From Oscillospiraceae bacterium (lineage in GTDB: Bacteria; Bacillota; Clostridia; Oscillospirales; UBA929): 64,000 bases of DNA. Numbering within the stretch: position 1 is the first letter of the stretch; each line of letters begins with the position of its first letter. The DNA is taken from assembly GCA_009782475.1 (NCBI GenBank), contig WRIZ01000002.1, positions 1 to 64,000 on the forward strand, given 5' to 3'. The notes under the pieces are model-generated. The model was not told where the DNA came from, did not search any database, and worked only from the letters and a program-made list of their open reading frames with translations. Shown piece after piece: positions 1,212 through 52,979 of the stretch. Both the position numbers and the translations under genes were made by a program.

Positions 1212-1991
1212 CTACATCATCAGACTGCGTTTTATGAAATCGAGGAGCTGTACCGCGTCTCCTCCGGCTCTTGCTTTTATGTACAAGGAGGTCAGCAAGT
1301 GATGCGCGTCCTCCAATGATAGCTCGTCGGCAGCCTTTGCCAGTTCAGGGGAGTTCGAAAAATCGGATGAGAACATAGCTTTGGTTCCAGTTTTCGGAGA
1401 ATCATTCCCTTGCTCCTTGGAAACTCCCGGTGCGTCAGTTTTGTTTTCGGCATCACCACGCGGCTTTTGAACCGCAAGCCCTTGGGCTACCTTTGCATAT
1501 CCTTTTGTAGTAAGGAATGAAATGAGAATATCGTCGGTACATACTCCTTGTTCATCCACATCACCGGTAAGGTAAAGGGGGTTCAGGTTGAGTACCTGCC
1601 CAATGGCGACGGCAACTTTTGCGGTGATGACGCCGGTAGCGTAAACACGGTTGATGGATACTCGCTTCAAACCGGTCAGCGCGTCGATCTCATCCTTCTG
1701 CTTCCTTTTCGCGGCTTTTAAGACTTCCTTTGTCCGTTCCATAGTCAGATCGGCATTCGCGCTGACGTCTTTCCGTCCCATCGTTTGGATGACTTCCGCT
1801 GAGAGCATGATGATTTCCCCCTGTTTTTGTCGTTTGTTGCCTATATCATACCTCATAGCGGATTGAAGCGCAACTGTTATTTCATGCGGAGTACCTGCCT
1901 GTGGCGGTTCGATTACTGTTGTGCTTTCTGATGGCATATGGTAAAATTGGTCGAGGTTTGTAGAAGCGAACCACATGGCGGTCAAGATCAT
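1212..1991 (-). CDS. hypothetical protein with Lys/Glu-rich central and C-terminal parts
   Basis: 259-aa ORF. The start codon is uncertain and no conserved domain was recognised. It sits in an accessory-like context. Confidence 0.35.
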   Translation of the reverse strand: MILTAMWFASTNLDQFYHMPSESTTVIEPPQAGTPHEITVALQSAMRYDIGNKRQKQGEIIMLSAEVIQTMGRKDVSANADLTMERTKEVLKAAKRKQKDEIDALTGLKRVSINRVYATGVITAKVAVAIGQVLNLNPLYLTGDVDEQGVCTDDILISFLTTKGYAKVAQGLAVQKPRGDAENKTDAPGVSKEQGNDSPKTGTKAMFSSDFSNSPELAKAADELSLEDAHHLLTSLYIKARAGGDAVQLLDFIKRSLMM

Positions 1992-2012
1992 AATCAGAGG
2001 AGAACTCAGATC

Positions 2013-3296
2013 ATGTCATATGACAACGATAGGTTTTTTGAGAACCTTATGGGAACAGAGGCGGGTCAGCGCCTGTATGGAGCGACAAAAAGCCTTGTCA
2101 ACACAATGTTTGAAGGGTTGTCAGACTATGAAATAGCAAAGAGTATGCTTCCGAAAAAAGGAAACTATCGGGACGGCGCTTACAATTCCATGCAGGATAT
2201 CAAAGACGAGATCGACAACTGTCAAAGGGATATTCAAATGGTGAAAGCCGAAGCGGACACAGCCCGAAAACCGGGAGTCCGTTATGCTGAAATTCTTAGC
2301 AGGTTGTATAGCCGGGAGTCGTCGCTAAAAGCGGAACTGCAGGATCGGATAGAAGAAAGACGTGACCCTGCTGCCTACGCTGAGCAAAAGCGCATGGAGC
2401 GGTACAACAGTTTATATGAGCAGTCGAAAACTGCAACATCTGAATGGGAACTGAAAAGGCTTGTTGAGCAGTTGCGTGAACTTGATGGTTTCGAAGACTC
2501 TGAAGATTTGGCTGACGAAATAGAGCAGCGATATGAAAATCTCAAGAGCACACGCATTAGCAGCTCATACAGCAGCGAAATACAAAAGCTATCGGAGCTA
2601 AAAAAACAGTTTGATAGCAGAAATAAATTGACTCCGCACCAACTTCGAGAATTGGCGAATTCTTATAAGGAAAGAGCCCGCCAATTCAATGACCTTGAGG
2701 GATATAAATCATCTGTTGAAAAAGCAAAGGAATGCGAAAGGAATAGTGATACCGCGAGTAAATTAGCGGATACCAAGGAGCGAAGGGCAATTATTGCCCG
2801 AAAAACGGTTATAGGGGTAGGTATAGGCGTTCAGGTATGTGTGACAGCGTATTTCCTTTATACTCTCTATGGAACAGCAGCTATTCGCCAATTTACCGAG
2901 GCGGAAAAAGGGTCATGGGGTATCATGCACTCTTTGTTTATGCCGTTATGTTTGTTCGGCCTGACGCTGGCTTGCAATAGCATGATTTTTTTCAGGAAGA
3001 ACTTTATTTCCGGCGCGTTAACGCATCTGCCGTTATTCGGTGTCGCTATAGTCTACGCGGTTACACTGGCCAATTGGACAGATAGCGCATCATCGGACTT
3101 GCTTACCTTTGGCCTGCTATGCCTTGTTGCAATAATCCCGGGCTTTATATTGCTGTTACTAATGCAGAAGACATATTCTATTAAGTCAATCCCTATTTCT
3201 CTGATTCTTGTTGCTGCTGTAGTAATAGGTGGAAGATATGGGTTTCCTGCATTGGAAACTTTCATGCAATCATTACCGGAAATAGGGATAGGGTGA
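2013..3296 (+). CDS. hypothetical membrane protein with an N-terminal coiled-coil and C-terminal transmembrane helices
   Basis: ATG at 2013 is preceded by AGAGGAGA. The N-terminal ~260 aa are charged and coiled-coil-like. The C-terminal ~160 aa contain at least 4 hydrophobic helices. The gene ends in an ATGA overlap with the next gene. Confidence 0.5.
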   Translation: MSYDNDRFFENLMGTEAGQRLYGATKSLVNTMFEGLSDYEIAKSMLPKKGNYRDGAYNSMQDIKDEIDNCQRDIQMVKAEADTARKPGVRYAEILSRLYSRESSLKAELQDRIEERRDPAAYAEQKRMERYNSLYEQSKTATSEWELKRLVEQLRELDGFEDSEDLADEIEQRYENLKSTRISSSYSSEIQKLSELKKQFDSRNKLTPHQLRELANSYKERARQFNDLEGYKSSVEKAKECERNSDTASKLADTKERRAIIARKTVIGVGIGVQVCVTAYFLYTLYGTAAIRQFTEAEKGSWGIMHSLFMPLCLFGLTLACNSMIFFRKNFISGALTHLPLFGVAIVYAVTLANWTDSASSDLLTFGLLCLVAIIPGFILLLLMQKTYSIKSIPISLILVAAVVIGGRYGFPALETFMQSLPEIGIG

Positions 3297-4661: not shown

Positions 4662-4665
4662 GCGG

Positions 4666-4703
4666 CGCACTTCAAGTCTTCTTGAAGTGCGTTGCATTTT
4701 CTT
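4666..4703 (+). terminator. Rho-independent terminator after the MBL hydrolase gene
   Basis: 11-bp stem cgcacttcaag / cttgaagtgcg with loop tctt, followed by ttgcattttctt. Confidence 0.6.
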
Positions 4704-4737: not shown

Positions 4738-4768
4738 TTGACTTTGACGCTACGGAATAGTTTACACT
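4738..4768 (+). promoter_or_regulatory. MerR-type promoter: -35 TTGACT, 19-bp spacer, -10 TACACT
   Basis: A 19-bp spacer is the hallmark of MerR-regulated promoters. It lies directly upstream of the MerR-HTH gene, so autoregulation is plausible. The outer dyad CTATT..AATAG spans the -35 element and the spacer. Confidence 0.4.
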
Positions 4769-4790
4769 TGGTTTTAGGAGGTGAGGTCAG

Positions 4791-5798
4791 ATGGAATACA
4801 CCGTCAACAAACTCTCGAAATTGTCAGGGGTCAGCGCTCGTACGCTGCGTTATTACGATGAGATCGGCCTCTTGAAACCGGCTAAGGTCGCATCGTCAGG
4901 GTATCGCAGCTACGGGCAGTACGAAGTGGATATGTTGCAGCAGATTTTGTTCTACCGTGAACTCAATTTCTCGCTGGACGATATCCAGAAAATCATGACC
5001 GACCCCAATTTTGACCGGGAGCAGGCTTTCACAAACCATCTCACCGAGCTTCAAAACAAAAGTGTGCGGCTGGACGAATTGATTGTCAACGTCAAGAAGT
5101 CCATGGCCGCCATGAAAGGTGAGGGTACTATGTCGGTCAAAGAAAAATTCAAGGGGTTCAGCAAGACGAACAGAAACGTGGATGCCGTGTTGAAGGAAAT
5201 CTCCATCACCGGCAATGTAGCCGGAGGGTTGCTCCTCAATGAAATCGAGCAGGTGTTTGTCAACATCGGGGAAGAGAATGTAGAGTTCATTTATACCTTC
5301 CCGATGCCTGAAGACGCCTCGGTCACCAGTTTCTCTGCCATGATTGGAGATGAGCGATTCACAGGCGTGGTGCAGGAAAAGGAAGAAGCGCTGGAAAAAT
5401 ACCAGAAAGCCATTGTCAAGGGTGACAGCGCCTACATGCTTGAGAGTCATCGGGACAATATATTTCAAGCCTCTCTGGGTAACGTGGCAAAGGGCGAAAC
5501 GGTAACCGTTCACATCTCTTACATACAGGATGTCACGGTGTCCAATAATGAGATCAGATTGCTAATCCCTACCCTTGTCAGCCCGCGGTATATCCCCGGT
5601 AAGCCCATAGGCCCGAAAACAGGTATGGGCTCCGTCAATCCGACCGGGCAGGTTCCAGATGCGGATTTCATTACTCCTGTGATTGGCGAAACAGGTTATA
5701 AGGTTGATTTTAATCTCTCTTTTGAATTGGATAACAATATTAAAGAGATTTCCTCGCCGTCTCATGACATTACATCGACATTTGACGAAGGCAAATGA
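4791..5798 (+). CDS. MerR-family HTH regulator fused to a VIT domain. This is the N-terminal segment of a MerR-VIT-vWA protein and ends at an in-frame TGA.
   Basis: The N-terminus LSGVSARTLRYYDEIGLLKP is a MerR HTH, followed by a coiled-coil. Residues ~150-275 fit the VIT pattern (FPMPEDASVTSF...RLLIPTLVSPRY). Translation continues in the same frame after TGA 5796-5798. Confidence 0.7.
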   Translation: MEYTVNKLSKLSGVSARTLRYYDEIGLLKPAKVASSGYRSYGQYEVDMLQQILFYRELNFSLDDIQKIMTDPNFDREQAFTNHLTELQNKSVRLDELIVNVKKSMAAMKGEGTMSVKEKFKGFSKTNRNVDAVLKEISITGNVAGGLLLNEIEQVFVNIGEENVEFIYTFPMPEDASVTSFSAMIGDERFTGVVQEKEEALEKYQKAIVKGDSAYMLESHRDNIFQASLGNVAKGETVTVHISYIQDVTVSNNEIRLLIPTLVSPRYIPGKPIGPKTGMGSVNPTGQVPDADFITPVIGETGYKVDFNLSFELDNNIKEISSPSHDITSTFDEGK

Positions 5799-5840
5799 AC
5801 TGTTACTGTAAATCAGGCGGATCTGAACTCCGACTTTGTC

Positions 5841-7781
5841 TTGAACATTTCGCTGCTCGGCGTTACGGCCGAGAAGTTCATCGTTTCTCAAAAGACAGAT
5901 AGCGGGTATTTTTCCTATATCTCGTTTGTGCCAAGACTGAAAGCCGCGCCTTTTGCTAACAAGGAATATATTTACATGCTCGATATATCCTATTCAATGA
6001 GCGGCGAAAACTTGGAATCGGCGAAGAAGGCTCTGAAAATCTGTCTGAGAAACCTGGAAGCCGGCGACATTTTTAATATGATTGCCTTTGAAAGCAGCTT
6101 CGAGTGTTTTTCCGAGCGGGGTGTTGAGCTTACAGAGGACAGCTTCAAAAAAGCTAACCTGTGGATAGATCAGCAAACCAGCCGTGGCGGTACGGAAATC
6201 TTCCCGGCCCTGCGGTATGCTGTGGAAAGCATGAAGAATGAACACGACATAGAAAAGATTATTATGCTCCTGACGGACGGTCAGGTGGGCAATGAGGACG
6301 AGATTATCAAATATGTCAAGGGCAATTTCGATGGCCGCGTCTTCTGCGTGGGAATCGACGTCAATGTCAACGACAGCTTCTTAAACAAAGTATCTACTGT
6401 AGGCAACGGCTATACAGAGTTCTATTACCCGGACAGTAATGAAGACCTTGCCGGAAAAATCGTAAGGCAATTCGCCAGATCAAATGCCGCGTATCTCAAG
6501 GACATTAAGTTCAAAGCGGATTGCAAAATCGAGGTGGCCGGCAAGCCGCCTAAATACCTCTACAGTGATGAATGCTGCAACATCATCTTGAAATCGGACG
6601 ACTGTATTGACTTTTTACGCGTTATCGGGTCTTCCGACGAGGGCGAGATGACGTTGGAGTTCCCGGTGACAGACACCAACGGCAATCCAGAGCTGTTCAG
6701 TAAAATGTGGGCCAAGAAGAGGATAACTGATTATGAACGCGATGCGTTCGATATCAACCCGAGACACGAGAAGCTGGCAAAAGAAAAGATTATCGAAATA
6801 AGCGTCATGTATGGCGTGATATGTCGCTATACCAGCTTTATCGCGCTGAATGAGCGTGAGAGCAAACAGGTGAATCTGCCCAAAGCGGTAGCCGTTCCGG
6901 TCAATGCGCCGAAGAGGAAAGCAGCAAAATCTTCTGGCGGAGGAATCTTGGGCAGAGGGCTTTTCAGCGAAATGAAGATGCTCAGTAGGCCATATTCAGA
7001 CGATGATACTGAAGACTTTGTCTGCTATAGTAGGTCTCCGCGCGAACAAGAGAGACGGTCGCAAGAGAGACTTGAAATGAAACGGCTAATGAGGCCAATA
7101 GATGATGCCGATGATTTCTCTGAATTTATGCCCCGAAGCGCAAGCATTCCGCCACCGCCTCCTAGTGCCGCATATGCTCCAAGTGCATCTGTGCAAAGCA
7201 GCGATGCCGATGAGAGCGATCCTTTCGAGAGCATATTCCGCATCTTTAATAGATCTTCGGCAACGAGGCCGCAGCCAGAAGGCAAAAGCAAAATCCAGCC
7301 TCTTGTCCTAAGATTTTTCAAGGAAATCTCTGATAGAGACACCCCAGTATCAGAATCGGAGTTCAAACTCGACATACGGGCAAAGATCATCGAGCTGTCT
7401 AAGCATTGCGACGCCATTGACTTTGCTGTGTGCTTCAATGAGATGGATCAGATTCTATCGGCTGTCGAGCAGTTTGTCGGGAAGGGCGATCAAGCATTTG
7501 ACGACAGTTTCCAAAAGTTGCTTCAACTGTTGGATGAGAACTGCCGCTTAAACGATGCGTCCTTAAAGTCCGCCGATATTGCCAGTATGCAGAATTTCGA
7601 CGGCTCGTTCTGCCAGTGCAGTCAGCTGAAAAAGAAGTATACCTTGGTCGCGGCGAAGCGGTTTATCAGCGACAGCGATTCATTCCTGTATAGCAGGCAA
7701 ATCAAAAAGCTGGTTGAATTTTTCCGCCGGACAGACGCCACTGTTTTGGAGGATTCTTGCTTTGCCGAATACTTGAAGTAA
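5841..7781 (+). CDS. von Willebrand factor A (vWA) domain protein, continuing the upstream VIT ORF in frame. It carries an internal copy of the FtsZ C-terminal peptide.
   Basis: vWA MIDAS region YMLDISYSMSGENL...LTDGQ. Then a Pro-rich disordered linker (PPPPPSAAYAPS) ending in DESDPFESIFRIFNRSS, then an alpha-helical C-terminal domain. It is in the same frame as 4791..5798, and the intervening codons read TVTVNQADLNSDFVLNISL. Confidence 0.7.
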   Translation: MNISLLGVTAEKFIVSQKTDSGYFSYISFVPRLKAAPFANKEYIYMLDISYSMSGENLESAKKALKICLRNLEAGDIFNMIAFESSFECFSERGVELTEDSFKKANLWIDQQTSRGGTEIFPALRYAVESMKNEHDIEKIIMLLTDGQVGNEDEIIKYVKGNFDGRVFCVGIDVNVNDSFLNKVSTVGNGYTEFYYPDSNEDLAGKIVRQFARSNAAYLKDIKFKADCKIEVAGKPPKYLYSDECCNIILKSDDCIDFLRVIGSSDEGEMTLEFPVTDTNGNPELFSKMWAKKRITDYERDAFDINPRHEKLAKEKIIEISVMYGVICRYTSFIALNERESKQVNLPKAVAVPVNAPKRKAAKSSGGGILGRGLFSEMKMLSRPYSDDDTEDFVCYSRSPREQERRSQERLEMKRLMRPIDDADDFSEFMPRSASIPPPPPSAAYAPSASVQSSDADESDPFESIFRIFNRSSATRPQPEGKSKIQPLVLRFFKEISDRDTPVSESEFKLDIRAKIIELSKHCDAIDFAVCFNEMDQILSAVEQFVGKGDQAFDDSFQKLLQLLDENCRLNDASLKSADIASMQNFDGSFCQCSQLKKKYTLVAAKRFISDSDSFLYSRQIKKLVEFFRRTDATVLEDSCFAEYLK

Positions 7782-7841
7782 AAAGCTGCAATAGGCAATG
7801 GGCGGGTTGACTAATAACCCGCCCATTGCTATATCTCTTCA

Positions 7842-8717
7842 TCATGCCGTTTGTTGCTTCTGCCAAGCGCAAAGCAGATCGGTTATGACTTGATTCATCT
7901 GAGATGCCGTGTAATCCGCAGGGAAGAATCTACGAAATCCTCCGACGTCTTTTTCTGTGTTCGAATCTGATTTAGTTTTCGCAAGCACCTTTTCAATCGC
8001 GGCAACGGTGAGTTCCCCGGCTTGGCTCAGTTTCTTGAGTTGTATTGCCTGCGAGAGCATCGGCTTGACCTGATATTTCATCATTGCCTCTACCACAGAT
8101 GCTTGTTCCGAACGCGAGAGATGGGACAATTCCACGGCAGGATTGAACGCAAGCCGATTTGCGTCCACCTTGTCAAGCAGATCAGGAACCAATTCAGTCA
8201 GCCGGATTAGCCGAAAAATCTGGTTTCTGCTTTCGCCGGTCTGCTCGACCAACACATCCACGGAGTGCATATCGCTTTTGACTCCGTTGTGGTTCAGTGC
8301 TTCCATCTTAACACGGTAGGCCCACGCCTTTTCGCTGGGCAGGATTTTCTCCCGCTGTTCCAAATTCGAATCTACCATCGCTATGGCGGCGCTGTCATCG
8401 TCCATTTCGCGTATGATAACAGGCATGGTGACTATCCCGGCGAGTTCGGAAGCCCGTTTGCGTCGGTTCCCGGCAATAAGCTCATAACCACCCTCGGCTC
8501 TTGGCCGGACAAGACCGGGCTCACGGACGCCATACTGCTTCACGCTGTTTACAAGCCGTTTCATAGCAGCATCATCAAGAACCTGAAATGGGTGATACTC
8601 AGGAGGGTAGAGTTCAGTGAGCGGGAGGTCAACGATACGCTCGACATCCGCTTCAACGCCAAAAATCTCGTTGTGACCGGCAAGGGCAAGGTTGCCGAAT
8701 GTTCCTGTCTTACGCAA
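7842..8717 (-). CDS. parB: ParB/Spo0J-family partition protein
   Basis: ParB N-terminal domain: GVREPGLVRP...YELIAGNRRKRASELAG, a GERR-box variant. 291 aa. It overlaps parA by 8 bp. Confidence 0.8.
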   Translation of the reverse strand: MRKTGTFGNLALAGHNEIFGVEADVERIVDLPLTELYPPEYHPFQVLDDAAMKRLVNSVKQYGVREPGLVRPRAEGGYELIAGNRRKRASELAGIVTMPVIIREMDDDSAAIAMVDSNLEQREKILPSEKAWAYRVKMEALNHNGVKSDMHSVDVLVEQTGESRNQIFRLIRLTELVPDLLDKVDANRLAFNPAVELSHLSRSEQASVVEAMMKYQVKPMLSQAIQLKKLSQAGELTVAAIEKVLAKTKSDSNTEKDVGGFRRFFPADYTASQMNQVITDLLCAWQKQQTA

Positions 8718-9498
8718 TCTTCAGCACCTCCTCGGTGAGCGTGGCATACGCCGCCGCGACTTTTCCGGTGGGATCATAGGCGAAGATGCTTTTTCCTTCC
8801 GCGCTGGTTTCCGCGGCACGGACAGAGCGGGGAATACGCTCCCTAAAAATGTGGATATCGCTGCCGTATGCGCTTTCGATGAGAGAGATGATCTCGCGGG
8901 TATAGTTCATCCGTTTGTCAACCATTGTAAGTAAAATGCCGCCAATTGCAAGATTGGGGTTGAAATGCCGCTGCACCTGTGATATAGTCTTAAGCAGCAG
9001 TTCAAGCCCTTTGGCATCAAGGTATCCCGCTATAACTGGAATGAGTACGCAGTCTGACGCGGTAAGCGCGTTGATGGTCAGAAGACCGAGCGATGGCGAT
9101 GTGTCAACGATAACGAAGTCATACATCGGTTTCAACGTATCGATGTACTGCCGGAGTATGGTTTCACGCCCCACCATCACTGAGGCTAAAGCGAGTTCCG
9201 TGCCTGACAGACTGTTGTTAGCGGGAAGAAAGTCAATGCCCTCGCTGTGATGGAGGATGCCGCTTGTCGGGTCGATTGGGGTTTCGCGTAAGATGGCGTC
9301 CATTGCGGTTGTGAGCGTGACGGGGAGTTTATCCGGCTCTCTGACGCCAAGACTGATAGTGAGGGAGTGTTGCGGGTCGGCATCGAGAAGGAGAACACTT
9401 GCTCCGCTTTTTGCCAGTCCGACACCAAGGCTCACGGCGGTCATGGTCTTTCCCACACCACCTTTGCGATTGGAAACGCAGATTGTTTTGCCCATATG
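8710..9498 (-). CDS. parA: ParA/Soj-family partition ATPase
   Basis: Deviant Walker A KGGVGKT. The likely start is MGKTICVSN at 9495/9498, preceded by an AAAGGAAAG RBS. The ORF is open upstream as far as 9630. Confidence 0.8.
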   Translation of the reverse strand, partial: HMGKTICVSNRKGGVGKTMTAVSLGVGLAKSGASVLLLDADPQHSLTISLGVREPDKLPVTLTTAMDAILRETPIDPTSGILHHSEGIDFLPANNSLSGTELALASVMVGRETILRQYIDTLKPMYDFVIVDTSPSLGLLTINALTASDCVLIPVIAGYLDAKGLELLLKTISQVQRHFNPNLAIGGILLTMVDKRMNYTREIISLIESAYGSDIHIFRERIPRSVRAAETSAEGKSIFAYDPTGKVAAAYATLTEEVLKIA

Positions 9499-9687
9499 GT
9501 TCTTTCCTTTCCGGTTGGATTTTGGGACATTGGCATTTGTCGTATACTTAACATCAGCTATAGTATTGGACAAAAGGGTCCCAATCTTGAAGTGGAAAAA
9601 GGGTAGAAATGAATAACGACAAACCCGCAACCCATTGATAACACAGGTTTTTAGGATTTGTCGTAATTATACCATAAGGGCAGTTGT

Positions 9688-10517: not shown

Positions 10518-13124
10518 GTGAGCAAGCAATACGAGACCGTGAACAGCGTTGAATCTTTACATGCCGCCTTTGAACGGGTACGCGCCGCCCAAAACCAATT
10601 CGCCTCTTTTACGCAGGAGCAGGTGGATGCCATTTTCCGCGCGGCGGCCACCGCGGCGAACCGATCGCGCATACCGCTGGCAAAGCTGGCGGTGGAGGAA
10701 ACGGGTATGGGCGTCGCGGAAGACAAGGTCATCAAAAACCATTACGCCGCCGAGTATGTATACAACGCGTATAAGGACACGAAAACCTGCGGATTGATCG
10801 GGGACGATCCCGCGGGCGGTTATCATACATACGCCGAACCAATGGGGGTCATCGCGGCGGTCATCCCAACCACAAACCCGACGTCAACGGCCATTTTCAA
10901 GGCTCTGATCGCCCTGAAGACCCGCAACGGCATCATCTTCAGCCCCCACCCAAGAGCCAAAGGCTGTACCATTGCCGCGGCAAAAACGGTATTGGACGCC
11001 GCCGTGAAAGCCGGTGCGCCGGAGGGCATTATCGGCTGGATTGACGCGCCTAATTTGGAACTGACCAACCTGGTCATGAAGGAAGCGGATGTCATCTTGG
11101 CGACCGGCGGGCCAAGCATGGTGAAAGCGGCCTATTCCAGCGGCAAACCGGCCATCGGCGTGGGCGCGGGCAATGTTCCGGCGATTATCGACGATACGGC
11201 GGACATCCTTTTGGCGGTAAACTCCATCATACACTCGAAGACCTTCGACAACGGGATGATCTGCGCTTCGGAGCAGGCCGTGATCGTCTTGGATTCACGG
11301 GTTGAAGAGGTGAAAAACGAGTTTGGTAAGCGCGGATGCCATATACTCAGCCCGGAAGAGACAGAGAAGGTTCGCAAAACCATCATCATAAACGGCTCGC
11401 TGAATGCCAAAATTGTCGGGCAGACGGCGCATACGATCGCCGGACTCGCCGGTGTGACCGTTCCGAAAACAACAAAAATCCTGATCGGGGAAGTGGAAAG
11501 CGTTGAACTAAGCGAGGAGTTTGCGCATGAAAAACTATCTCCCGTGCTGGCTATGTACAAGGCAAAAGACTTTGAAGACGCGCTGCAAAAAGCGGAACGC
11601 CTAGTCTTTGACGGCGGCATGGGGCATACGGCCTCCATTTATCTTGACCCGTTAACGGCAAAGGAAAAGCTGGAACAATTCACCGCGCGGATGAAAACCT
11701 GCCGCATCCTTCTCAACACACCGTCCTCACACGGGGGGATCGGGGATTTATACAATTTCAAGCTCCGGCCGTCACTTACCTTAGGCTGCGGTTCGTGGGG
11801 CGGAAATTCGATCAGCGAAAACGTCGGCGTAAAGCATCTGCTGAATATAAAAGTTGTGGCTGAGAGGAGAGAAAATATGCTTTGGTTCCGCACACCCGAA
11901 AAAATCTATCTCAAACGCGGATGCCTGCCGGTCGCTTTGGATGAGCTGAAATCCGTGCTCGGCAAGAAACGCGTCTTTATCGTCACAGACGGATTCCTGT
12001 ATAAAGGCGGCTTTGCCAAAGCTGTCACCGGGAAACTGGACGAAATGGGGATCACGCACACAACATTCTTCGATGTTGAGCCTGACCCGACGCTGGTCTC
12101 GGCGCGCGAGGGCGCGAAACAGATGGCGGCCTTCGAGCCGGATGCCATCATCGCCATCGGCGGCGGCAGCCCGATGGACGCCGCGAAGATCATGTGGCTG
12201 CTGTACGAACACCCGGAGGCGGATTTCGAGGATATGGCCATGCGGTTTATGGACATCCGCAAACGGGTTTACGGTTTCCCGAGCCTAAAAACATACTTTA
12301 TTGCCATTCCCACCACGGCAGGCACCGGCAGCGAGGTGACCCCCTTTGCGGTCATAACCGACGAAACCACAGGGATCAAATACCCGCTGGCGGATTATGA
12401 GCTTATGCCCGACATGGCGATCGTTGACGCCGACCTGATGATGCAGGCTCCCAAAGGATTGACGGCCGCGAGCGGCATCGACGCAGTCTCTCACGCGCTG
12501 GAAGCGTATGCCTCCATGCTCGCCACCGACTATACCGATTCTCTTGCGCTGGGTGCGTTGAAATCATTGTTCGCGTATCTGCCCCGAGCCTATGAAAATG
12601 GCGCAGACGACCCGGAAGCCCGTGAAAAAGTCGCTAATGCCGCGACCATGGCGGGCATGGCGTTTGCCAACGCATTCCTCGGCGTCTGCCACTCGATGGC
12701 GCATAAGCTGGGAGCCTATCATCATTTGCCCCACGGTGTAGCAAACGCGCTGCTGATCGGCGAGGTCATCCGCTTCAACGCCTCCGAAGCCCCCGCGAAA
12801 ATGGGGTCATTTTCGCAGTACGATCACCCGCACACCCTGTCGCGTTACGCTTCGATTGCCGACGCGCTGGGGTTGGGCGGCAAGACCGATGAGGATAAAC
12901 TGCAGCAACTGCTGGATGCTGTTGAACGGTTGAAAGAGAATGTTGGCATCCAAAAAACCATCCGCGATTATGGCGTGGATGAAAAGGATTTCCTTGACCG
13001 GCTGGACGAAATGACAGAAAATGCTTTTGACGATCAATGCACCGGAGCCAATCCCCGCTATCCGCTGTTTGCCGAGATTAGGCAGATGTATCTGAACGCT
13101 TATTATGGAGGCGAAGAAAAATGA
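10518..13124 (+). CDS. adhE: bifunctional acetaldehyde-CoA / alcohol dehydrogenase
   Basis: 868 aa. The N-terminal part is an aldehyde dehydrogenase domain. The C-terminal part is an iron-dependent alcohol dehydrogenase (GGGSPMDAAK, HSMAHKLGAYHHLPHG). GTG start. Confidence 0.95.
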   Translation: MSKQYETVNSVESLHAAFERVRAAQNQFASFTQEQVDAIFRAAATAANRSRIPLAKLAVEETGMGVAEDKVIKNHYAAEYVYNAYKDTKTCGLIGDDPAGGYHTYAEPMGVIAAVIPTTNPTSTAIFKALIALKTRNGIIFSPHPRAKGCTIAAAKTVLDAAVKAGAPEGIIGWIDAPNLELTNLVMKEADVILATGGPSMVKAAYSSGKPAIGVGAGNVPAIIDDTADILLAVNSIIHSKTFDNGMICASEQAVIVLDSRVEEVKNEFGKRGCHILSPEETEKVRKTIIINGSLNAKIVGQTAHTIAGLAGVTVPKTTKILIGEVESVELSEEFAHEKLSPVLAMYKAKDFEDALQKAERLVFDGGMGHTASIYLDPLTAKEKLEQFTARMKTCRILLNTPSSHGGIGDLYNFKLRPSLTLGCGSWGGNSISENVGVKHLLNIKVVAERRENMLWFRTPEKIYLKRGCLPVALDELKSVLGKKRVFIVTDGFLYKGGFAKAVTGKLDEMGITHTTFFDVEPDPTLVSAREGAKQMAAFEPDAIIAIGGGSPMDAAKIMWLLYEHPEADFEDMAMRFMDIRKRVYGFPSLKTYFIAIPTTAGTGSEVTPFAVITDETTGIKYPLADYELMPDMAIVDADLMMQAPKGLTAASGIDAVSHALEAYASMLATDYTDSLALGALKSLFAYLPRAYENGADDPEAREKVANAATMAGMAFANAFLGVCHSMAHKLGAYHHLPHGVANALLIGEVIRFNASEAPAKMGSFSQYDHPHTLSRYASIADALGLGGKTDEDKLQQLLDAVERLKENVGIQKTIRDYGVDEKDFLDRLDEMTENAFDDQCTGANPRYPLFAEIRQMYLNAYYGGEEK

Positions 13125-38399: not shown

Positions 38400-38402
38400 A
38401 TT

Positions 38403-40280
38403 GTGAAATCCGAGGTTCCCGATAGCAAAGAGAGTGCCGCCGTAGGCGGCCTTTCTGCGATTGACAGAAAAGAAGGGTTGAAAGCGAAAGCCCTTTCCCT
38501 GCCCGGCGAACCGGGCGTATACATCATGTTTGACAAAAAGGGGAAAATAATCTACATCGGCAAAGCAAAACGGCTGAAAAACAGAGTTTCGTCTTATTTT
38601 CAAGACAGCGCGGGACACAGCGCGAAAACCCGCCGCATGGTATCCCGGATCGACCGCTTCGATACCATCGTCGCCGCCAGTGAGTTTGAGGCGTTGGTGC
38701 TGGAGTGCAGCCTCATCCGCCACCATAAACCCCAGTATAACATCATGCTCAAAGACGGCAGCGGGTATCCGTTCATCAAGCTGCCCCCGGGGTCGTATCC
38801 GTCGTTCTCGGTCATCCACGACAACCGGCTGGTCAAAGACGGTTCGCGTTATTTCGGCCCCTACGGCAAATGGGGGTTGTCAAAACTGGTCATCGACGCG
38901 CTGAACACCACCCTCAAACTGCCCGTATGCGGGAAGAATTTCCCGAGGGACATCGGCAAAGGGCGTCCCTGCCTGCAATACCATATGGGGCGTTGCGCCG
39001 GGGTTTGCCTGGGGGATGTAAGCGAAGAGGAATATAAGGAAAAGATACGCCGCGCCATCATGATGATGGAGGGCAAAGCCGCCGGGCTCATCAATGAAAT
39101 GGAAAAAGAGATGGCGGATTGTGCGGACAAGCTCCAGTTTGAAGCGGCCGCGCAGATCCGCGACGAGATCAAATCGATCACCGCGCTGACAAACCGGCAA
39201 ATTGTCGTCGGCGGGGGAATGGCCGACACCGACGTCATCGCCGCCGTCACGGGCGAAACCCGTTCGGGCGTTGCGGTGCTGCATTTCCTTGATGGCAAAA
39301 TCGTCGGGCAGGACATTGAACTGAGCGAAGACGCTGACGAAGCCGAAGTGCTCTCATCCTTTGTCTCCCAATACTATATCGCGCGGGGGCGCATCCCTAA
39401 GAATGTATTTTTATCAAGTCCGATCGAGGATGAAGAAATTCTCAAGGACGCCTTTTTGGCAAAAGGGATGAAGGTGGAGTTTTCCGTCCCACAGCGGGGG
39501 GCGAAGGCCGAACTGGTCAAGATGGCGGCGCGAAACGCCGCCGAGGAGATCGAAAGGGTGACCTCCCGGGAAGAGAAGATACGGTTCCTGCTCGGGGAGT
39601 TAAAGCGTTTGCTCTCGCTGCCTGAGCCGCCCGGGCGCATCGAGGCGGTTGACATCTCCAATTTGGGCGACAGCGGGCGGGTCGGCGTGATCATTTGCTA
39701 TAAAGACGGGAAACCGCTGAAGAAGGCGTATAAACACTTCATCATCAAGAACGCCGGCATCCACGACGATTACCATTCGATGGAGGAAGTATTGACCCGG
39801 CGTTTCGCCCGATTGATCAAAGGCGACGCGGGGTTTGCCGAAGCCCCGGGGCTTTTGCTGGTAGACGGCGGCTCGACCCACGCCGCTATGGCCGAACGGG
39901 TGCTGAACGGGTTTGGTCTGACCATTCCGGTCTTCGGGATGGTCAAAGATGAAAAGCACCGCACCCGCGCCGTGGTCACACCAAACGGCGGCGAGGCGGC
40001 TTTGACGGGTTCCCCGGGTGTTTTCGCGCTGATCGGCCAGATTCAGGAGGAAACCCACCGGAGCGCGCTGGCGTTTCATCAGAAGCAGCGCAGTAAGTTT
40101 GAATCTGAATTAGACGGCATACCCGGTCTGGGCGAAGCGCGGCGGAATAAATTGATTCAGCATTTTAAGAGCGTGAAAAGAGTCGCTTCGGCAACGCCGG
40201 AAGAGCTGGAAGCATTGCTGCCGAAAAAGGCCGCCATTGCGGTATACAACCATTTCCATGTGCCGTTTGAAGGAGCATAA
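38403..40280 (+). CDS. uvrC: excinuclease ABC subunit C
   Basis: GIY-YIG motif (GVYIMFDKKGKIIYIGKAKRLKNRVSSYF), a UvrBC-interaction region, and an RNaseH-like/HhH C-terminus. GTG start. Confidence 0.9.
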   Translation: MKSEVPDSKESAAVGGLSAIDRKEGLKAKALSLPGEPGVYIMFDKKGKIIYIGKAKRLKNRVSSYFQDSAGHSAKTRRMVSRIDRFDTIVAASEFEALVLECSLIRHHKPQYNIMLKDGSGYPFIKLPPGSYPSFSVIHDNRLVKDGSRYFGPYGKWGLSKLVIDALNTTLKLPVCGKNFPRDIGKGRPCLQYHMGRCAGVCLGDVSEEEYKEKIRRAIMMMEGKAAGLINEMEKEMADCADKLQFEAAAQIRDEIKSITALTNRQIVVGGGMADTDVIAAVTGETRSGVAVLHFLDGKIVGQDIELSEDADEAEVLSSFVSQYYIARGRIPKNVFLSSPIEDEEILKDAFLAKGMKVEFSVPQRGAKAELVKMAARNAAEEIERVTSREEKIRFLLGELKRLLSLPEPPGRIEAVDISNLGDSGRVGVIICYKDGKPLKKAYKHFIIKNAGIHDDYHSMEEVLTRRFARLIKGDAGFAEAPGLLLVDGGSTHAAMAERVLNGFGLTIPVFGMVKDEKHRTRAVVTPNGGEAALTGSPGVFALIGQIQEETHRSALAFHQKQRSKFESELDGIPGLGEARRNKLIQHFKSVKRVASATPEELEALLPKKAAIAVYNHFHVPFEGA

Positions 40281-43326: not shown

Positions 43327-43863
43327 ATGGTTGAAGGAACCGCGGCATTGACGATGAACCCGCCGATGACGATCCCGCAAAGGCTCCCTGCGCCTCTTCC
43401 CGCGCAAAGACCCGTCAGGACGCCTGCCGCGCCCGATGTGCGGGAAAGGCCGAGAACGAAGGCTCCGGCAAAAAGAGTTGAAACAAGCGCGTCGGCGAGA
43501 TCGATCATGCGCGCCCTTGTATTGTTCGTGGGAGCTATGGCGTTGCTGCTGTTTATCGTGTATAATTATATGCAGTTAAGCATGTTGAGCAACGAAAATC
43601 GGAAAACGGCCAATCAGATTCATACACTGAAGAAGGAAGAAAGCGTTCTCAACCGCAGGGCGGAAGCGGGCGTCAGCCTGAGCGAGGTCGAAGGGTATGC
43701 GATCGGGGAATTGGGGATGGTCAAGCCGACGCGTGACCAAATCGTTTATGTCGGCACACCCGCGAGGGATCACGCCGAAGTCATTCAGCAAACAGGGTTT
43801 TGGGGAAGTGTGAAAAATCTCTTTTCCACCATGACGGGCAGGGTGATCGAATTCCTTGATTAG
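43327..43863 (+). CDS. ftsL: cell division protein FtsL-like (single TM helix plus coiled-coil)
   Basis: By position between rsmH and the PBP. TM helix VLFVGAMALLLFIVYNY, then a coiled-coil. N-terminal Pro/Arg-rich extension. Confidence 0.5.
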   Translation: MVEGTAALTMNPPMTIPQRLPAPLPAQRPVRTPAAPDVRERPRTKAPAKRVETSASARSIMRALVLFVGAMALLLFIVYNYMQLSMLSNENRKTANQIHTLKKEESVLNRRAEAGVSLSEVEGYAIGELGMVKPTRDQIVYVGTPARDHAEVIQQTGFWGSVKNLFSTMTGRVIEFLD

Positions 43864-43919
43864 TTCTATTTGCGAGGGACTGTCCGTATAATCAAGTGAG
43901 AAAAAGGGGGGACAGCCGA

Positions 43920-46193
43920 ATGGCGGAAGAGAGGAAGCCGCGGCCTGATAAAGAACGGTACAACCGGATGATTCTGGTGCGGGTGTTGATCCTCACCGGG
44001 ATTTTCGGTTTTGCGATGTTCGTCCCTTTGTCCATGAAACTCTATAACGTCGCCATCACACAGCATGACGAGCTGGAGCAAAGAGCCATCGATCAAGCCA
44101 CCAGCTCCTATCCCGTCACCGCCGGGCGCGGAACCATCTACGACCGCAATCACAACATTTTGGCCGTATCGGCCAGTGTGGAAACGGTCTGCGTCTCGCC
44201 GCGCGACATCGCCCGGGACAAAGACGCCGACGCCAAAAAGAAAATCATTGCCGACGGGCTTTCGGCCTTGCTGGATGTAGACCGGGAGATGATCGTTGAG
44301 CGGATGGAGCGCACCAACCGCGCCAACGAAACCATCAAGATGCAGATCGAGCGCGAACTGGCCGACGAGGTGCGGCAGTTTATTGAGGATAACAAACTGA
44401 CCCGGATGGTCTTCCTCGAACCGGCCAGCAAACGGTATTACCCCAACGGCTCCTTTGCGTCCAACATATTGGGGTTTGTGGACAGGGACGGAAAAGGGCT
44501 GATGGGGCTGGAAGCGGTGTATAACAAACACTTGGCCGGCGCGCCCGGATATACGGTGCGGGCGAAGACCGGGCAGGGGATGCCGCTGCCCAACCAATAT
44601 GAAATGTATTATGACGTTTTGGAAGGCTACAGCCTCGTTCTCACCATCGACGAAACCATTCAGCATTTTGCCGAGAAGCATCTTGAAACCGCCGTGATCG
44701 AAAACGAAGTCGCTCAGCGCGGCTGCGCCATCGTGATGGATGTCAAAACAGGCGGCATCCTCGCCATGGCGACCAAAGGCGATTTCGACCTCAACGAACC
44801 GCGTGAGATCGCCGACGAGGCGACCCGCCGCTGGCTGGATTCGCTCGGTGAAGAACTATACGCCGATGAATTGAGCATCGCGCAGCAGGCGCAGTGGCGC
44901 AACAAAGCCGTGTCCGATACCTATGAGCCGGGTTCGGTTTTCAAAATCTTCACCGCCGCTATGGCCATTGAGGAAAAGGCGGTGGATATCCATAACGACC
45001 GTTTTTCCTGCGGGGGAACCATTTCCATACCCGGTTACAGCGGCAGATGCCACAAAGCGGCCGGGCATGGGAGCCAAACCTTTTTGGAAACACTGACGCA
45101 TTCGTGCAACCCGGCTTTTGTCAACATTGGGATGCGGGTGGGGCCGGAAAAATTTTATGATTATATGCGCGCCTTCGGCTTTATGGATACAACAGGGATC
45201 GACCTTCAAGGCGAAGCCAAGGGCATCATCGCCCCTTATGAGAATTACTCACGGTATGTCTCCTCGCAGGCCGTTTACTCGTTCGGTCAGACGTTTACCG
45301 TAACGCCCCTCCAAATGCTCACGGCGGTCAGCGCCGTCGCCAACGGCGGAAAACTGATGAAGCCGTATATGCTTTCTCAGGTCATCGACGCCGACGGGCG
45401 GGTGGCCGAGAAAACCGACGCCACCCTTGTCCGGCAGGTCATCAGCGAGGATACGAGCAGATTGATGTGCGAGTATTTGGAAGAATGCGTCAATCAGGGA
45501 ACCGGTTCCAACGCCTACGTCAAAGGCTACCATGTGGCGGGCAAGACCGGGACGTCGCAGAAACGGGCGCAGGATATAACCGGGGAAAAGGGACTCTATG
45601 TCGTCTCCTTTGCCGGATTCGCCCCGTCGCACGATCCGCAGATCGCGGTTTTGGTCATGCTGGACGAACCGGGGTTAGACCGCCACCTGCGTATGGGAGG
45701 GTATATGGCGGCTCCCGTCGCGGGGCGTATCTTTGCCGACGCGCTGCCCTATATGAATGTCATCCCGCAGTATAAGCCGGAAGAGGCCATGTCGGCCGAT
45801 GTGACCGTTCCCTTTGTCAAACGCGCTGCCGTTTCCGAAGCCGAAGCCGCCGCGAAAAAACTCGGGCTGACGGTGCGTGTGATCGGCGACGGGGAGAGCA
45901 TTACCGACCAGTTACCGGCGGCGGGTGTGCGTGTGCCGCTCAAAACAGAGATGATCCTCTATACCGAAGGGACAAAACCCGAGGAGAGCTGTTTGGTTCC
46001 CGATGTGCGCGGCAAAACGCCCGGACAGGCCAATGAGCTGCTGACCAATGCCGGGGTGTTTATGCGGCCGATCGGAGCCAAGCCGTCCCCGGACGCCGTC
46101 CTGACGGCGGCGTGGCAGGAGTATGCCGGGCAGGAAGTGCCGCGCGGGACGGTCATATCGGTGGAATTCCGAAGTTCCAACGTAGACGACTAA
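43920..46193 (+). CDS. class B penicillin-binding protein (FtsI/SpoVD/PBP2B-like) with C-terminal PASTA domains
   Basis: Transpeptidase SVFK (SxxK), SCN (SxN), KTGT. PASTA repeats at the C-terminus. AAAGGGGGGA RBS before ATG 43920. Confidence 0.9.
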   Translation: MAEERKPRPDKERYNRMILVRVLILTGIFGFAMFVPLSMKLYNVAITQHDELEQRAIDQATSSYPVTAGRGTIYDRNHNILAVSASVETVCVSPRDIARDKDADAKKKIIADGLSALLDVDREMIVERMERTNRANETIKMQIERELADEVRQFIEDNKLTRMVFLEPASKRYYPNGSFASNILGFVDRDGKGLMGLEAVYNKHLAGAPGYTVRAKTGQGMPLPNQYEMYYDVLEGYSLVLTIDETIQHFAEKHLETAVIENEVAQRGCAIVMDVKTGGILAMATKGDFDLNEPREIADEATRRWLDSLGEELYADELSIAQQAQWRNKAVSDTYEPGSVFKIFTAAMAIEEKAVDIHNDRFSCGGTISIPGYSGRCHKAAGHGSQTFLETLTHSCNPAFVNIGMRVGPEKFYDYMRAFGFMDTTGIDLQGEAKGIIAPYENYSRYVSSQAVYSFGQTFTVTPLQMLTAVSAVANGGKLMKPYMLSQVIDADGRVAEKTDATLVRQVISEDTSRLMCEYLEECVNQGTGSNAYVKGYHVAGKTGTSQKRAQDITGEKGLYVVSFAGFAPSHDPQIAVLVMLDEPGLDRHLRMGGYMAAPVAGRIFADALPYMNVIPQYKPEEAMSADVTVPFVKRAAVSEAEAAAKKLGLTVRVIGDGESITDQLPAAGVRVPLKTEMILYTEGTKPEESCLVPDVRGKTPGQANELLTNAGVFMRPIGAKPSPDAVLTAAWQEYAGQEVPRGTVISVEFRSSNVDD

Positions 46194-46208
46194 CAGAGGG
46201 GGTGCAAG

Positions 46209-47603
46209 ATGCGGCTGTTTGCCCTGTTGCAGGTTTTGGATACATTGCAGACAAACGCGCCGTCTTTGGACTGCGAAGTGGACGGCGTGCACAACGATAC
46301 GCGGGGCATGAAGAAAGGCGACCTCTTCGTCGCCGTCCCCGGAACCGAACTGGATGGTCATTGTTATATCCGTCAGGCGATGGACATCGGCGCGTCGATG
46401 ATCGTGACCGAACGCCCGCTTGATTCCTCTGTCCCGCACGTCGTCGTGCCCGACGCGCGCGCCGCTTTGGCCATGCTGGAAGCGAAAATTGCAGGCTACC
46501 CGGCTGAAAAGATGACGATGACCGGCGTGACCGGGACAAAAGGGAAAACGACGGTCACTCATATCATCAAGGGGTTGATCGAGGGCGTCACAGGCCAAAA
46601 GACAGGGCTGGTCGGCACCAATCATATCCTGATCGGGGAGAAGGAGCTGCCGTCGGAACGCACAACCCCCGACGCGGTCAAGCTGAACAGTGTTTTCGCG
46701 CAAATGGCGGAAGAAGGATGCGCCCACTGCGTGATGGAAGTATCGTCCCACGCGCTGGCGCAGTCCCGGGTATTGGGGATACATTACGAAGCAGGGGTCT
46801 TTACCAACCTCCATCACGAGCATATGGATTACCATACCGATATGGAGGATTACTTTTCCGCCAAAAGCCGATTGTTTTTGCAAAGCAGGAAAGCTATCAT
46901 CAACAGTGACGACCCTTACGGAAAACGGCTGGCCGCACAAATCCCCGATGCGATCCCCTTCTCGCTCTCTATGGCGGAGAACAGGGAGCTAAAGCCCAAC
47001 GGCGTTGCGTTCACCCTGTCGGGAGAGCGTTTCGCGTGGGGTACGCCCGGGTTGTTCACCGTTTACAATGTTCTTGCCGCCGTCTTGACCGGCGCGGCAT
47101 TGGGGCTCCCCATCGCGGATATGGCAAGGGTTTTGCCCGGTATCCCGCCTGTGAAAGGGCGGATGGAGTTGGTGACGGCGGACAACGGTATCTACATTTA
47201 CATCGATTACGCCCATACGCCCGACGCCATTGCCGCCGTGCTGCAAACGATGAAACCATTTTGCAAAGGGCGGCTGATCGCCCTCTTCGGATGCGGCGGC
47301 GACCGTGACAAGACCAAACGCCCTTTGATGGGGGCTGCGGCTCAGCGAACCGCCGACCTATGTTATGTCACTTCCGACAACCCCCGTTCCGAAAACCCGG
47401 AAACGATTATTTCAAACATTTTAGAGGGAATGGAAAACCGGGACAGGTTTGTTGAACCCGATCGCAGGAAAGCGATTAAGGCGGCGATGAAAGAGGCCAA
47501 GCCGGGCGATATACTCATGCTGCTGGGCAAAGGTCACGAAGAGTATCAGGAAATTTGCGGCGTCAAGCATCCGTTTGACGAACGGGAGGTGGTACGGGAA
47601 TGA
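46209..47603 (+). CDS. murE: UDP-N-acetylmuramoyl-L-alanyl-D-glutamate--2,6-diaminopimelate ligase
   Basis: GVTGTKGKTT P-loop and Mur ligase domains. Confidence 0.9.
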   Translation: MRLFALLQVLDTLQTNAPSLDCEVDGVHNDTRGMKKGDLFVAVPGTELDGHCYIRQAMDIGASMIVTERPLDSSVPHVVVPDARAALAMLEAKIAGYPAEKMTMTGVTGTKGKTTVTHIIKGLIEGVTGQKTGLVGTNHILIGEKELPSERTTPDAVKLNSVFAQMAEEGCAHCVMEVSSHALAQSRVLGIHYEAGVFTNLHHEHMDYHTDMEDYFSAKSRLFLQSRKAIINSDDPYGKRLAAQIPDAIPFSLSMAENRELKPNGVAFTLSGERFAWGTPGLFTVYNVLAAVLTGAALGLPIADMARVLPGIPPVKGRMELVTADNGIYIYIDYAHTPDAIAAVLQTMKPFCKGRLIALFGCGGDRDKTKRPLMGAAAQRTADLCYVTSDNPRSENPETIISNILEGMENRDRFVEPDRRKAIKAAMKEAKPGDILMLLGKGHEEYQEICGVKHPFDEREVVRE

Positions 47604-49761: not shown

Positions 49762-49763
49762 CC

Positions 49764-52211: not shown

Positions 52212-52979
52212 ATGCCGGGAGAAAGAAAGCGCAGACGGCGGGGAAGGTATAGCTTTTTGCTGACCTTCTTTGTTGCCGCCGCGCTTATTTTTGCATTTGT
52301 GCTGACAAGCGGCTTTTTCTTCAAAATCAAGCACATCGAATTTGAGGGCGTATCGGTCACAAGCCAGGCAAAAATCAAAGAGCTTTTGGGGTTTTCCGAA
52401 GGCGATCATATCTTCCTCATCAATAAATCAGGTTCGGCCAATTCGATTTTGGCCAACATGCCTTATGTCAAAACAGTCCGCATCAAGCGGAGCCTGCCGG
52501 GCACGGTGCTGGTGATCATCACCGAAGCCGAACCGGCGGCCATGATCGAATACAGGGGCGAGGTTTGGCTGTTTGACGCGCAGGGGAAACTCTTGGAGTC
52601 CGTTGCGTCTTATAACACGCCCGATCTGCCGGTTGTAACGGGGTTTGAGCTGTTCAGCCCCATGGAAGGCACAACCATTTATCCGGCGTTTGAAGATACC
52701 GCGAAGAAAGAACCGCTGCTGGAATTGCTTCAAACAATGCGGGAGGAAGGGATATGGGAAGGCGTCGGGGAAATCGATCTGACGCAAATCTCCAATATTT
52801 GCTTTACCTATAACGAAATCTATACGGTGGAACTGGGGCTGCCGAACAAGTTTGACCGGAAGATTCAAATCATGAATCAAGCCTTGCAGGATGAGAAAGT
52901 CTCCGGCAGAGGGGCGGGAACGCTTTATCTTGCGGACGCGGGGGAAAAGCCTGTGAGATTCGTCCCGGGGGGTGATTGA
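52212..52979 (+). CDS. ftsQ: cell division protein FtsQ/DivIB (POTRA)
   Basis: N-terminal TM, then a POTRA-like KIKHIEFEGVSVTS. Confidence 0.75.
   Translation: MPGERKRRRRGRYSFLLTFFVAAALIFAFVLTSGFFFKIKHIEFEGVSVTSQAKIKELLGFSEGDHIFLINKSGSANSILANMPYVKTVRIKRSLPGTVLVIITEAEPAAMIEYRGEVWLFDAQGKLLESVASYNTPDLPVVTGFELFSPMEGTTIYPAFEDTAKKEPLLELLQTMREEGIWEGVGEIDLTQISNICFTYNEIYTVELGLPNKFDRKIQIMNQALQDEKVSGRGAGTLYLADAGEKPVRFVPGGD

Follow-up and report, generated by a model that had tools for sequence, protein, structure and literature searches.

Can a MerR-type DNA-binding module and a VIT-vWA protein be combined into a single transcriptional regulator? The question is raised by a locus in the first 64,000 nucleotides of contig WRIZ01000002.1 from an Oscillospiraceae bacterium, a stretch here termed, as a whole, the window. 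VIT-vWA proteins are known mainly from the eukaryotic extracellular matrix (ITIH) and from the vault-associated PARP4, and to our knowledge no role has been assigned to their bacterial relatives. A preliminary description of the window had interpreted positions 4738-7781 as one gene, in which a MerR-family helix-turn-helix (HTH) and dimerization helix are fused to VIT and vWA domains behind a MerR-type promoter, and had suggested the metal ion-dependent adhesion site (MIDAS) of the vWA domain as a possible sensing or effector module. The three domains are indeed encoded in the same frame, but the region comprises two open reading frames (ORFs), not one, and the single gene of that description is broken by a TGA at 5796-5798. 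Because of this in-frame stop, which the description had missed, the MIDAS and the vWA domain are not joined to the DNA-binding part in the locus as sequenced, and the idea that the MIDAS acts as the sensor of the regulator finds no direct support. Our favored reading, to which we assign a probability of roughly 55%, is that the locus represents a recent chimera, truncated as sequenced, and not a MIDAS-sensing regulator; the locus is perhaps decaying.

The first of the two ORFs (ORF A) runs on the forward strand from the ATG at 4791 to the TGA at 5796-5798 and encodes 335 amino acids (aa) that comprise a MerR_1 and a VIT domain; the continuation in the same frame (5799-7781, final stop at 7779-7781) encodes the rest of the VIT-vWA protein. 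A domain scan places MerR_1 at aa 3-70 (E = 1.8e-17), including the motif LSGVSARTLRYYDEIGLLKP that had been put forward as a canonical MerR HTH at the N-terminus, and the MerR profiles exceed their curated cut-offs (63.6 bits against 21.6 for PF13411 and 51.6 against 28.2 for PF00376). The same scan upholds the other two domain assignments, with VIT at aa 134-244 (5190-5522; E = 3.5e-30; β-strands modeled at 132-259) and vWA at 5970-6443, where VWA_3, VWA and VWA_2 all match (best E = 4.8e-16, for VWA_3). The MIDAS is intact: its DxSxS motif (D398, S400 and S402; 5982-5996) is kept, as are T468 and D496, and all of these residues occupy invariant columns in the alignment of homologs. Beyond the vWA domain lie a linker (aa 690-833; 6858-7289) that is probably disordered, being modeled with low confidence and poorly conserved among homologs, and a C-terminal domain modeled as all-helical (aa 835-995; 7293-7778), which carries a 'QNFDGSF' motif conserved throughout the family. 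The structural model was computed for the read-through protein of 996 aa and has a mean pLDDT of 67.9, with values mostly of 65-92 in the VIT-vWA core (about 58 in one block of ten residues) and low confidence in the loop at 264-302. In the public annotation of the contig, which is 143 kb long and belongs to a metagenome-assembled Oscillospiraceae genome, the region is likewise given as two proteins, one of 335 aa named 'MerR family transcriptional regulator' (P0121) and one of 646 aa named 'VWA domain-containing protein' (P0001), the latter with its start at TTG 5841, before which no Shine-Dalgarno sequence was found.

The origin of the 5' half can be traced with some precision. Hundreds of the matches listed are MerR+TipAS proteins of ~252 aa, with 65-75% identity to its first ~125 aa, and when ORF A was compared with 5.8 billion proteins the matches listed were first itself and then either MerR+TipAS or VIT(-vWA) proteins. 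This TipA/Mta-class MerR N-terminal module (aa 1-124; 4791-5162, forward strand) consists of the winged HTH (aa 3-70) and the α-5 dimerization helix. The latter element, which the preliminary description had also recognized, is aligned and conserved with the MerR+TipAS proteins through aa ~110, and the model places helices at 76-89 and 94-107 in this region, with low confidence. In the alignment the homology to MerR+TipAS proteins stops at '...MSVKEKFKGFS' (aa ~124), and the domain scan found no match to the TipAS domain (PF07739) in the protein. In two other proteins (P0252 and P0282) the same TipAN-type module (56-65% identity over aa 1-124/132) precedes S-adenosylmethionine (SAM)-dependent methyltransferase domains, with a swap point that nearly coincides with that of the window, and it also occurs alone; these arrangements show the TipAN-type N-terminal module to be a mobile, swappable unit.

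The regulatory sequences upstream of ORF A have their counterparts in the same family. The TTGACT-19-TACACT promoter noted earlier (4738-4768, forward strand; -35 at 4738-4743, spacer of 19 nucleotides (nt) at 4744-4762 and -10 at 4763-4768) is present once in the window, against 0.01 matches expected by chance, and a conserved imperfect dyad within the spacer, CTTTGACGCTACGGAATAG (4742-4760), constitutes the putative operator. A Shine-Dalgarno sequence, AGGAGGTGAGG (4776-4786), ends 4 nt before the ATG at 4791; its GAGGTGA core is invariant in the promoter alignment (A3) and the remainder is largely conserved. Four MerR+TipAS homologs located on other contigs (L104-L107) are preceded by conserved versions of both promoter boxes, of the 19-nt spacer and of the ribosome-binding site, whereas the flanking sequences are not conserved. 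The promoter and operator, GACTTTGACG...CG.AATAGTTTA, are conserved only 5' of MerR+TipAS homologs; the conserved block as a whole, ATTGACTTTGACG...CG.AATAGTTTA.ACT, was not found elsewhere in the window or in the 108 fetched loci, and no further copies of the operator were found in the window. The central bases of the operator have diverged, reading GCTACGG as opposed to the GTAACGT consensus of TipAS-type promoters. Autoregulation, as originally suggested, is a reasonable inference from the conservation of spacer and operator before the four MerR+TipAS genes. A TipAL/Mta-class MerR autoregulator is the source of the promoter and operator, of the ribosome-binding site and of the ~124 initial codons. 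Two terminator-like hairpins on the forward strand set the limits of the unit. The first (4662-4695), a 15-pair stem with a T-rich tail, ends the upstream gene, which encodes a metallo-β-lactamase-fold protein; the second (7794-7830), with a 16-pair stem, lies 13 nt past the final stop. Both are predicted to bracket a single transcription unit. The window gave no Rfam match at the gathering score and no tRNA.

Within the MerR module, a Shine-Dalgarno-like AAAGGTGAGG followed by an ATG (M114; 5115-5132, forward strand) corresponds to the conserved 'MKGExxM' of the MerR+TipAS homologs, and L104, L105 and L106 present at the equivalent codons a Shine-Dalgarno-like AAAGG(T/A/G)GA(G/A) followed by an invariant ATG. 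The tipA gene has two alternative start codons, which give rise to long and short forms of its product (PMC7762955). In the window, translation from the ATG of M114 could yield a shorter VIT(-vWA) protein devoid of the MerR part, but we treat this as a lead only, since the K-G-E codons are purine-rich anyway.

From aa ~128 onward the read-through protein can be aligned end to end with VIT-vWA proteins of ~800 aa. The closest of these (P0002, P0004, P0006, P0007 and L087), with 50-60% identity over the BLAST-aligned region, begin at query aa ~128, and the fusion junction ('SKTNRNV', aa ~124-130; 5160-5180, forward strand) is located only a few codons from the starts of such stand-alone homologs, as illustrated by L087, whose initial 'MTNDATLKEL' aligns with 'KTNRNVDAVLKEI' at the junction. 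As judged by this alignment, the 3' part corresponds to a complete VIT-vWA gene. The nearest relatives stand alone in unrelated neighborhoods; among those with enough upstream sequence on their contig none is preceded by a MerR gene, and no MerR-type operator, which would mean regulation in trans, was found before the closest stand-alone VIT-vWA genes. The best structural match obtained with Foldseek is inter-alpha-inhibitor heavy chain 1 (6FPY; E = 5.6e-34; TM-score of 0.62 on the target). The protein shows no evident signal peptide or sorting motif and is probably cytoplasmic, given N-termini such as 'MTNDATLKEL'. Its two halves score 123.3 and 178.6 bits against the TIGR03788 sortase-target family, the cut-off of which is 551.65, and no NCBIfam equivalog provides a curated family name. 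A role in a known anti-phage defense system was considered and rejected: the VIT-vWA proteins have no match in PADLOC-DB, where the HTH yields only a generic match to mad1.

The combination of both halves appears to be unique. Neither the read-through protein nor ORF A retrieved a second MerR+VIT protein among the matches listed from 5.8e9 proteins, and none of the matches listed spans the MerR and VIT halves when ORF A is scored against all 1.84e9 cluster representatives. A profile combining VIT with the MerR type that neighbors other VIT-vWA genes (see below), built to favor fusions, likewise returned no fusion among the matches listed from 5.8e9 proteins. The back-translated junction peptide had no matches in the JGI metagenomes, and the sole apparent junction-spanning match in metagenomes, L087, turned out to be a VIT-vWA gene that stands alone, preceded by an ORF unrelated to the MerR module. 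VIT-vWA proteins extended at the N-terminus, when checked against Pfam, showed FHA, CarboxypepD_reg and SHOCT, never MerR; these FHA, CarboxypepD_reg or SHOCT-like domains are carried by P0308, P0294 and P0303. A literature search on MerR, VIT and vWA returned papers on eukaryotic ITIH and PARP4 only, and none on this architecture or on the gene pairing described below. The architecture had been described as uncharacterized, and in this respect the absence of a second example and of any paper agrees with the preliminary description; as a singleton, however, the fusion is best regarded as a one-off, lineage-specific chimera, and not as an evolved family or an established architecture.

The in-frame TGA at codon 336 (5796-5798) is the one stop in an otherwise continuous frame. 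In the three nearest relatives the aligned column is occupied by Gly (GGQ-G-NV, GGK-G-TV and GGN-G-RV), encoded by GGG, GGC and GGA, and a single G-to-T change would be enough to turn a Gly codon into TGA. The stop must be considered an ordinary one in this window, since 16 of the 48 long ORFs in it end with TGA. The fold of the RNA 3' of the TGA is no stronger than that of shuffled sequence (z = -0.94), and this RNA contains no hairpin resembling a selenocysteine insertion sequence (SECIS). In the model, the TGA falls after strand 317-321 and before strand 338-344 of the β-sandwich that links VIT to vWA, which would place it in the middle of this sandwich and not at a domain boundary. A second assembly (L108; ENA ERZ27257320, contig k141_5150199) has an identical junction, TGA, ORF A and ORF B (the downstream ORF encoding the vWA and C-terminal domains); its identity with the window is 99.87% over 4.6 kb, with six differences, of which three (an indel and two substitutions) precede the promoter and three are coding substitutions (5153, 5156 and 6221). 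Because this assembly has both the junction and the stop, they are not the slips of one assembler. Three VIT-only ORFs of 243-254 aa, P0211 (from Melghirimyces profundicolus), P0137 and P0246, end 12-17 residues past the position equivalent to the stop in the window; perhaps these, too, are VIT-vWA genes that have been split or truncated.

Although the fusion itself is isolated, the association of MerR-family genes with VIT-vWA genes is not. We surveyed 80 VIT-vWA loci (L003-L082), taking one genome per species, and found a small, separate, same-strand MerR_1 gene directly 5' of the VIT-vWA gene in 71 of them by phmmer and in 73 by clustering of blastp results. Between the stop of this partner gene and the beginning of the VIT domain there are 21-171 nt, so that the partner gene abuts or nearly abuts the VIT-vWA start (for example, L028:6001-8740, L039:6001-8844 and L052:5983-9092). 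The cassette is spread over at least four phyla, including the Bacillota, Myxococcota, Chloroflexota and Acidobacteriota, with hosts among the Clostridia, Syntrophomonadaceae, Dethiobacter, Dehalococcoidia, Acidobacteriota and many Myxococcota (Myxococcus, Corallococcus, Sorangium); its carriers include the genetically tractable Myxococcus xanthus and Syntrophomonas wolfei. No third conserved gene was found, only MerR and VIT-vWA recurring across the 80 loci, and the 73 pairs are always two genes, with no fusion among them. In the 72 MerR-positive entries, 71 fetched loci have a separate MerR ORF and the window alone has MerR in the ORF of VIT. The partner MerR proteins (140-210 aa) present a confident winged HTH, a short helix in place of the long coiled coil, a disordered and variable linker and a conserved C-terminal hairpin-plus-helix ('Y.R..LG.G.ELH.P...KYA.KL'), and no known effector domain was found in them. 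For this MerR/VIT-vWA pair we found no paper, PADLOC model or curated NCBIfam name. A link between MerR and VIT-vWA proteins is indirectly supported by this survey, as 73 of the 80 related VIT-vWA genes follow a separate MerR-family gene.

In the Bacillota pairs that were read, the promoters consist of TTGACA, a spacer of 17 nt and TAnAAT, and the spacer harbors the dyad CGT(T/A)ACGTAACG, which in one group of Clostridia is a perfect 16-bp palindrome, ATCGTTACGTAACGAT. This operator is located ~35-100 nt before the MerR start in L025, L028, L030, L031, L039, L046, L050, L059 and L063, and further loci listed for Bacillota operator promoters are L003-L007, L038 and L080. The spacer of L038 (Dethiobacter) has 14 consecutive bases (CGTAACGTAATAGT) in common with the consensus spacer of TipAS-type promoters. 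The operators of the partner-MerR and TipAS types are thus alike in sequence, even though the MerR subfamilies are only distantly related; the MerR module of the window gives but a weak match to the partner type (E = 8.5e-5) and lacks the 'Y.R..LG.G.ELH' mini-domain.

A TipA/Mta-class N-terminal module, together with its own promoter, has been joined in frame to a complete gene for a cytoplasmic, ITIH1-like VIT-vWA protein, such that VIT-vWA took the place of the TipAS drug-binding domain, and the frame is now closed at codon 336 by a one-base change from Gly to TGA. According to our favored reading, the main product of the locus as sequenced would be a 335-aa fragment comprising the MerR N-terminal module and VIT, which should dimerize via α-5, bind its own operator and drive its own 19-bp-spacer promoter. 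Operator binding would probably be independent of any ligand, because the autoinhibitory α6-α7/TipAS part is missing; the α6-α7 region of TipAS is reported to block DNA binding, and removal of the TipAS domain to leave TipAN and MtaN constitutively active (PMC7762955). The vWA domain with its MIDAS and the C-terminal helical domain would be made only upon read-through of the TGA or restart of translation. Several observations weigh against this reading. The three coding differences between the assemblies (5153, 5156 and 6221), one of them 3' of the stop, are all synonymous, an outcome with a chance of ~2-6% under neutrality by our own rough estimate from a very small sample; this hints that purifying selection is still acting on both halves and calls for caution before the locus is called simply dead. 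Besides the TGA there is no decay and there are no frameshifts, and the 100+ family-invariant residues, including those of the MIDAS, are all kept. Finally, the frequency of MerR pairing in the survey makes a fusion to MerR less likely to be a meaningless accident.

The alternative that survives best, although we consider it unlikely, is that of a functional single-chain regulator of 996 aa, made either by read-through of the UGA or because the stop represents a minor allele or an error, which would be the fused version of the two-gene module; that the VIT-vWA part, through its MIDAS or its C-terminal domain, would control the DNA-binding module at its own 19-bp-spacer promoter is a proposal of the same tentative standing. 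Such a regulator would agree with the unchanged frame past the stop and the intact family-invariant residues, with the synonymous nature of the differences on both sides of the stop, with the single promoter and single terminator of the unit, with a junction that preserves the whole VIT-vWA protein and with the pairing of VIT-vWA and MerR-family genes, if the functional link is taken as real. On the other hand, the TGA is present in two assemblies and is a regular stop in the window, where no recoding signal was found, and no uninterrupted homolog of the fusion appears among the matches listed. In addition, the fused MerR is of the TipA class, a subfamily other than that of the usual partner, and the closest relatives of the VIT-vWA part function with no MerR gene next to theirs.

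It might further be postulated, and this we find rather doubtful, that the fusion is a natural 'Rosetta stone' for a hitherto undescribed module, in which a MerR-type DNA-binding protein would have a cytoplasmic, ITIH-like VIT-vWA protein for its sensing or co-regulatory subunit. Such a module would be encoded by a self-regulated two-gene operon in many Bacillota, Myxococcota, Chloroflexota and Acidobacteriota and would have been rebuilt here by way of a captured TipA-class module, in a lineage without an adjacent partner gene, where the captured module may recognize an operator of a similar ACGTAACG type.

A split but working pair is quite improbable. It would consist of ORF A and ORF B (vWA and C-terminal domain, with restart at TTG 5841), the products of which would either reassemble or act separately. 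The two proteins of the public annotation, the VIT-only ORFs found elsewhere (P0211 and P0137) and the fact that the only difference in ORF B is synonymous speak for such a pair. Nevertheless, TTG 5841 has no Shine-Dalgarno sequence, and the break falls within the predicted six-strand β-sandwich, leaving two or three strands on one side depending on where ORF B restarts; the stop, moreover, is a one-base change from an ancestral Gly codon and not an evolved gene boundary.

An artefact of assembly or sequencing, be it a chimeric join of a MerR+TipAS gene to an unrelated VIT-vWA gene or a stop that results from a miscalled base, is very improbable, even if the source is a metagenome-assembled genome and the architecture a singleton: the ENA ERZ27257320 record differs at six positions and yet has the identical junction and TGA, the join is in frame and at the start of a gene, and the parent genes would seem to have no common repeat to mislead an assembler. 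A programmed reading of the TGA as an amino acid, be it selenocysteine or, under an alternative code, Gly or Trp, is effectively refuted, for although the stop aligns with Gly, which is the meaning of TGA in genetic code 25, TGA is an ordinary stop in the window, where the long ORFs that end with it read well under code 11, no SECIS-like fold was found, the residue aligned in homologs is Gly and not Cys, and the organism is annotated as belonging to the Oscillospiraceae, a group for which we know of no TGA reassignment.

The surroundings of the locus are chromosomal. Genes for ParB and ParA (7842-9630, reverse strand) are convergent to the fusion gene and are followed by a gene for an AdhE-type aldehyde/alcohol dehydrogenase (10518-13124), and the window also contains uvrC (38400-40277) and a cluster of cell-wall genes (43860-50867) that includes a penicillin-binding protein transpeptidase with PASTA domains, a Mur ligase and MurG. 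Four ORFs had no Pfam match at E <= 1e-5, with products of 584 aa (54638-56389, reverse strand), 631 aa (56530-58422, reverse strand), 454 aa (1932-3293, forward strand) and 267 aa (1215-2015, reverse strand); a 542-aa protein with WG-containing β repeats (52976-54601) is encoded in the neighborhood of the Pfam-less ORFs.

Taken alone, the locus is a curiosity, which shows that a large, unrelated protein can receive the TipA/Mta N-terminal module along with the self-activating promoter of that module, in a graft that has already been broken by a stop codon. The pairing in the two-gene cassette and the spacer palindrome of the Bacillota provide, for their part, a testable link to transcription control for bacterial VIT-vWA proteins, and an interaction between the partner proteins, should there be one, would give MerR-type switches a novel route of signal input.

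When set against known systems, the locus appears as a MerR N-terminal module with a new C-terminal passenger. It resembles TipAL, Mta and SkgA in its winged HTH and α-5 helix, which are 65-75% identical to those of the ~252-aa MerR+TipAS proteins, and it has in common with the MerR+TipAS genes the conserved autoregulatory promoter, with its 19-nt spacer and ACGT-rich operator. Like tipA, it has an internal 'MKGExxM' with a Shine-Dalgarno-like sequence at the place of the second tipA start (PMC7762955). It differs from TipAL, Mta and SkgA in that the antibiotic-binding and autoinhibitory TipAS domain is absent and VIT-vWA begins at aa ~125 instead. The likeness to the ITIH heavy chains, PARP4, VWA5A and the bacterial TIGR03788 family resides in the possession of VIT and vWA domains with a full MIDAS, and the VIT-vWA part of the window is ITIH-like both by sequence and by modeled fold, yet it is not one polypeptide as sequenced; unlike ITIH and TIGR03788 proteins, it has a C-terminal helical domain of its own, is interrupted by a stop and has acquired a MerR module.

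The two-gene cassette offers a closer parallel, as a MerR-family module is encoded directly before the same VIT-vWA family and a ACGTAACG-type operator is located in the promoter spacer in both cases. In the cassette, however, the genes are separate, the MerR is of another subfamily and the spacer is of 17 nt and not 19, so that the locus is not a member of it. MerR-like factors controlled by a protein partner include GlnR and TnrA with glutamine synthetase, HspR with DnaK and CbpM with CbpA. These are the nearest functional analogy for a small MerR without a ligand domain that is governed by a VIT-vWA protein, and the structural matches of the partner-MerR model include GlnR (7TEA) and CbpM (3UCS); nothing beyond the MerR fold is common to their sequences and those of the cassette, and an interaction with VIT-vWA is conjectural.

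A further analogy for the cassette, and a precedent for a cytoplasmic vWA protein in gene control, is ArnB of Sulfolobus, which acts with the FHA protein ArnA on archaellum genes (PMC6509490). ArnB structures (8S05 and 5A8J) are among the fold matches of the read-through model, and the FHA::VIT-vWA fusion P0308 recalls the archaeal FHA/vWA pair; unlike the window protein, ArnB has no VIT domain, MerR partner or fused DNA-binding module. The fusions of MerR to SAM-dependent methyltransferases (P0252 and P0282), finally, use the same N-terminal module, joined at about the same point, and the difference lies in the partner, which in the window is a VIT-vWA protein of ~870 aa and not a small enzyme or ligand-binding domain.

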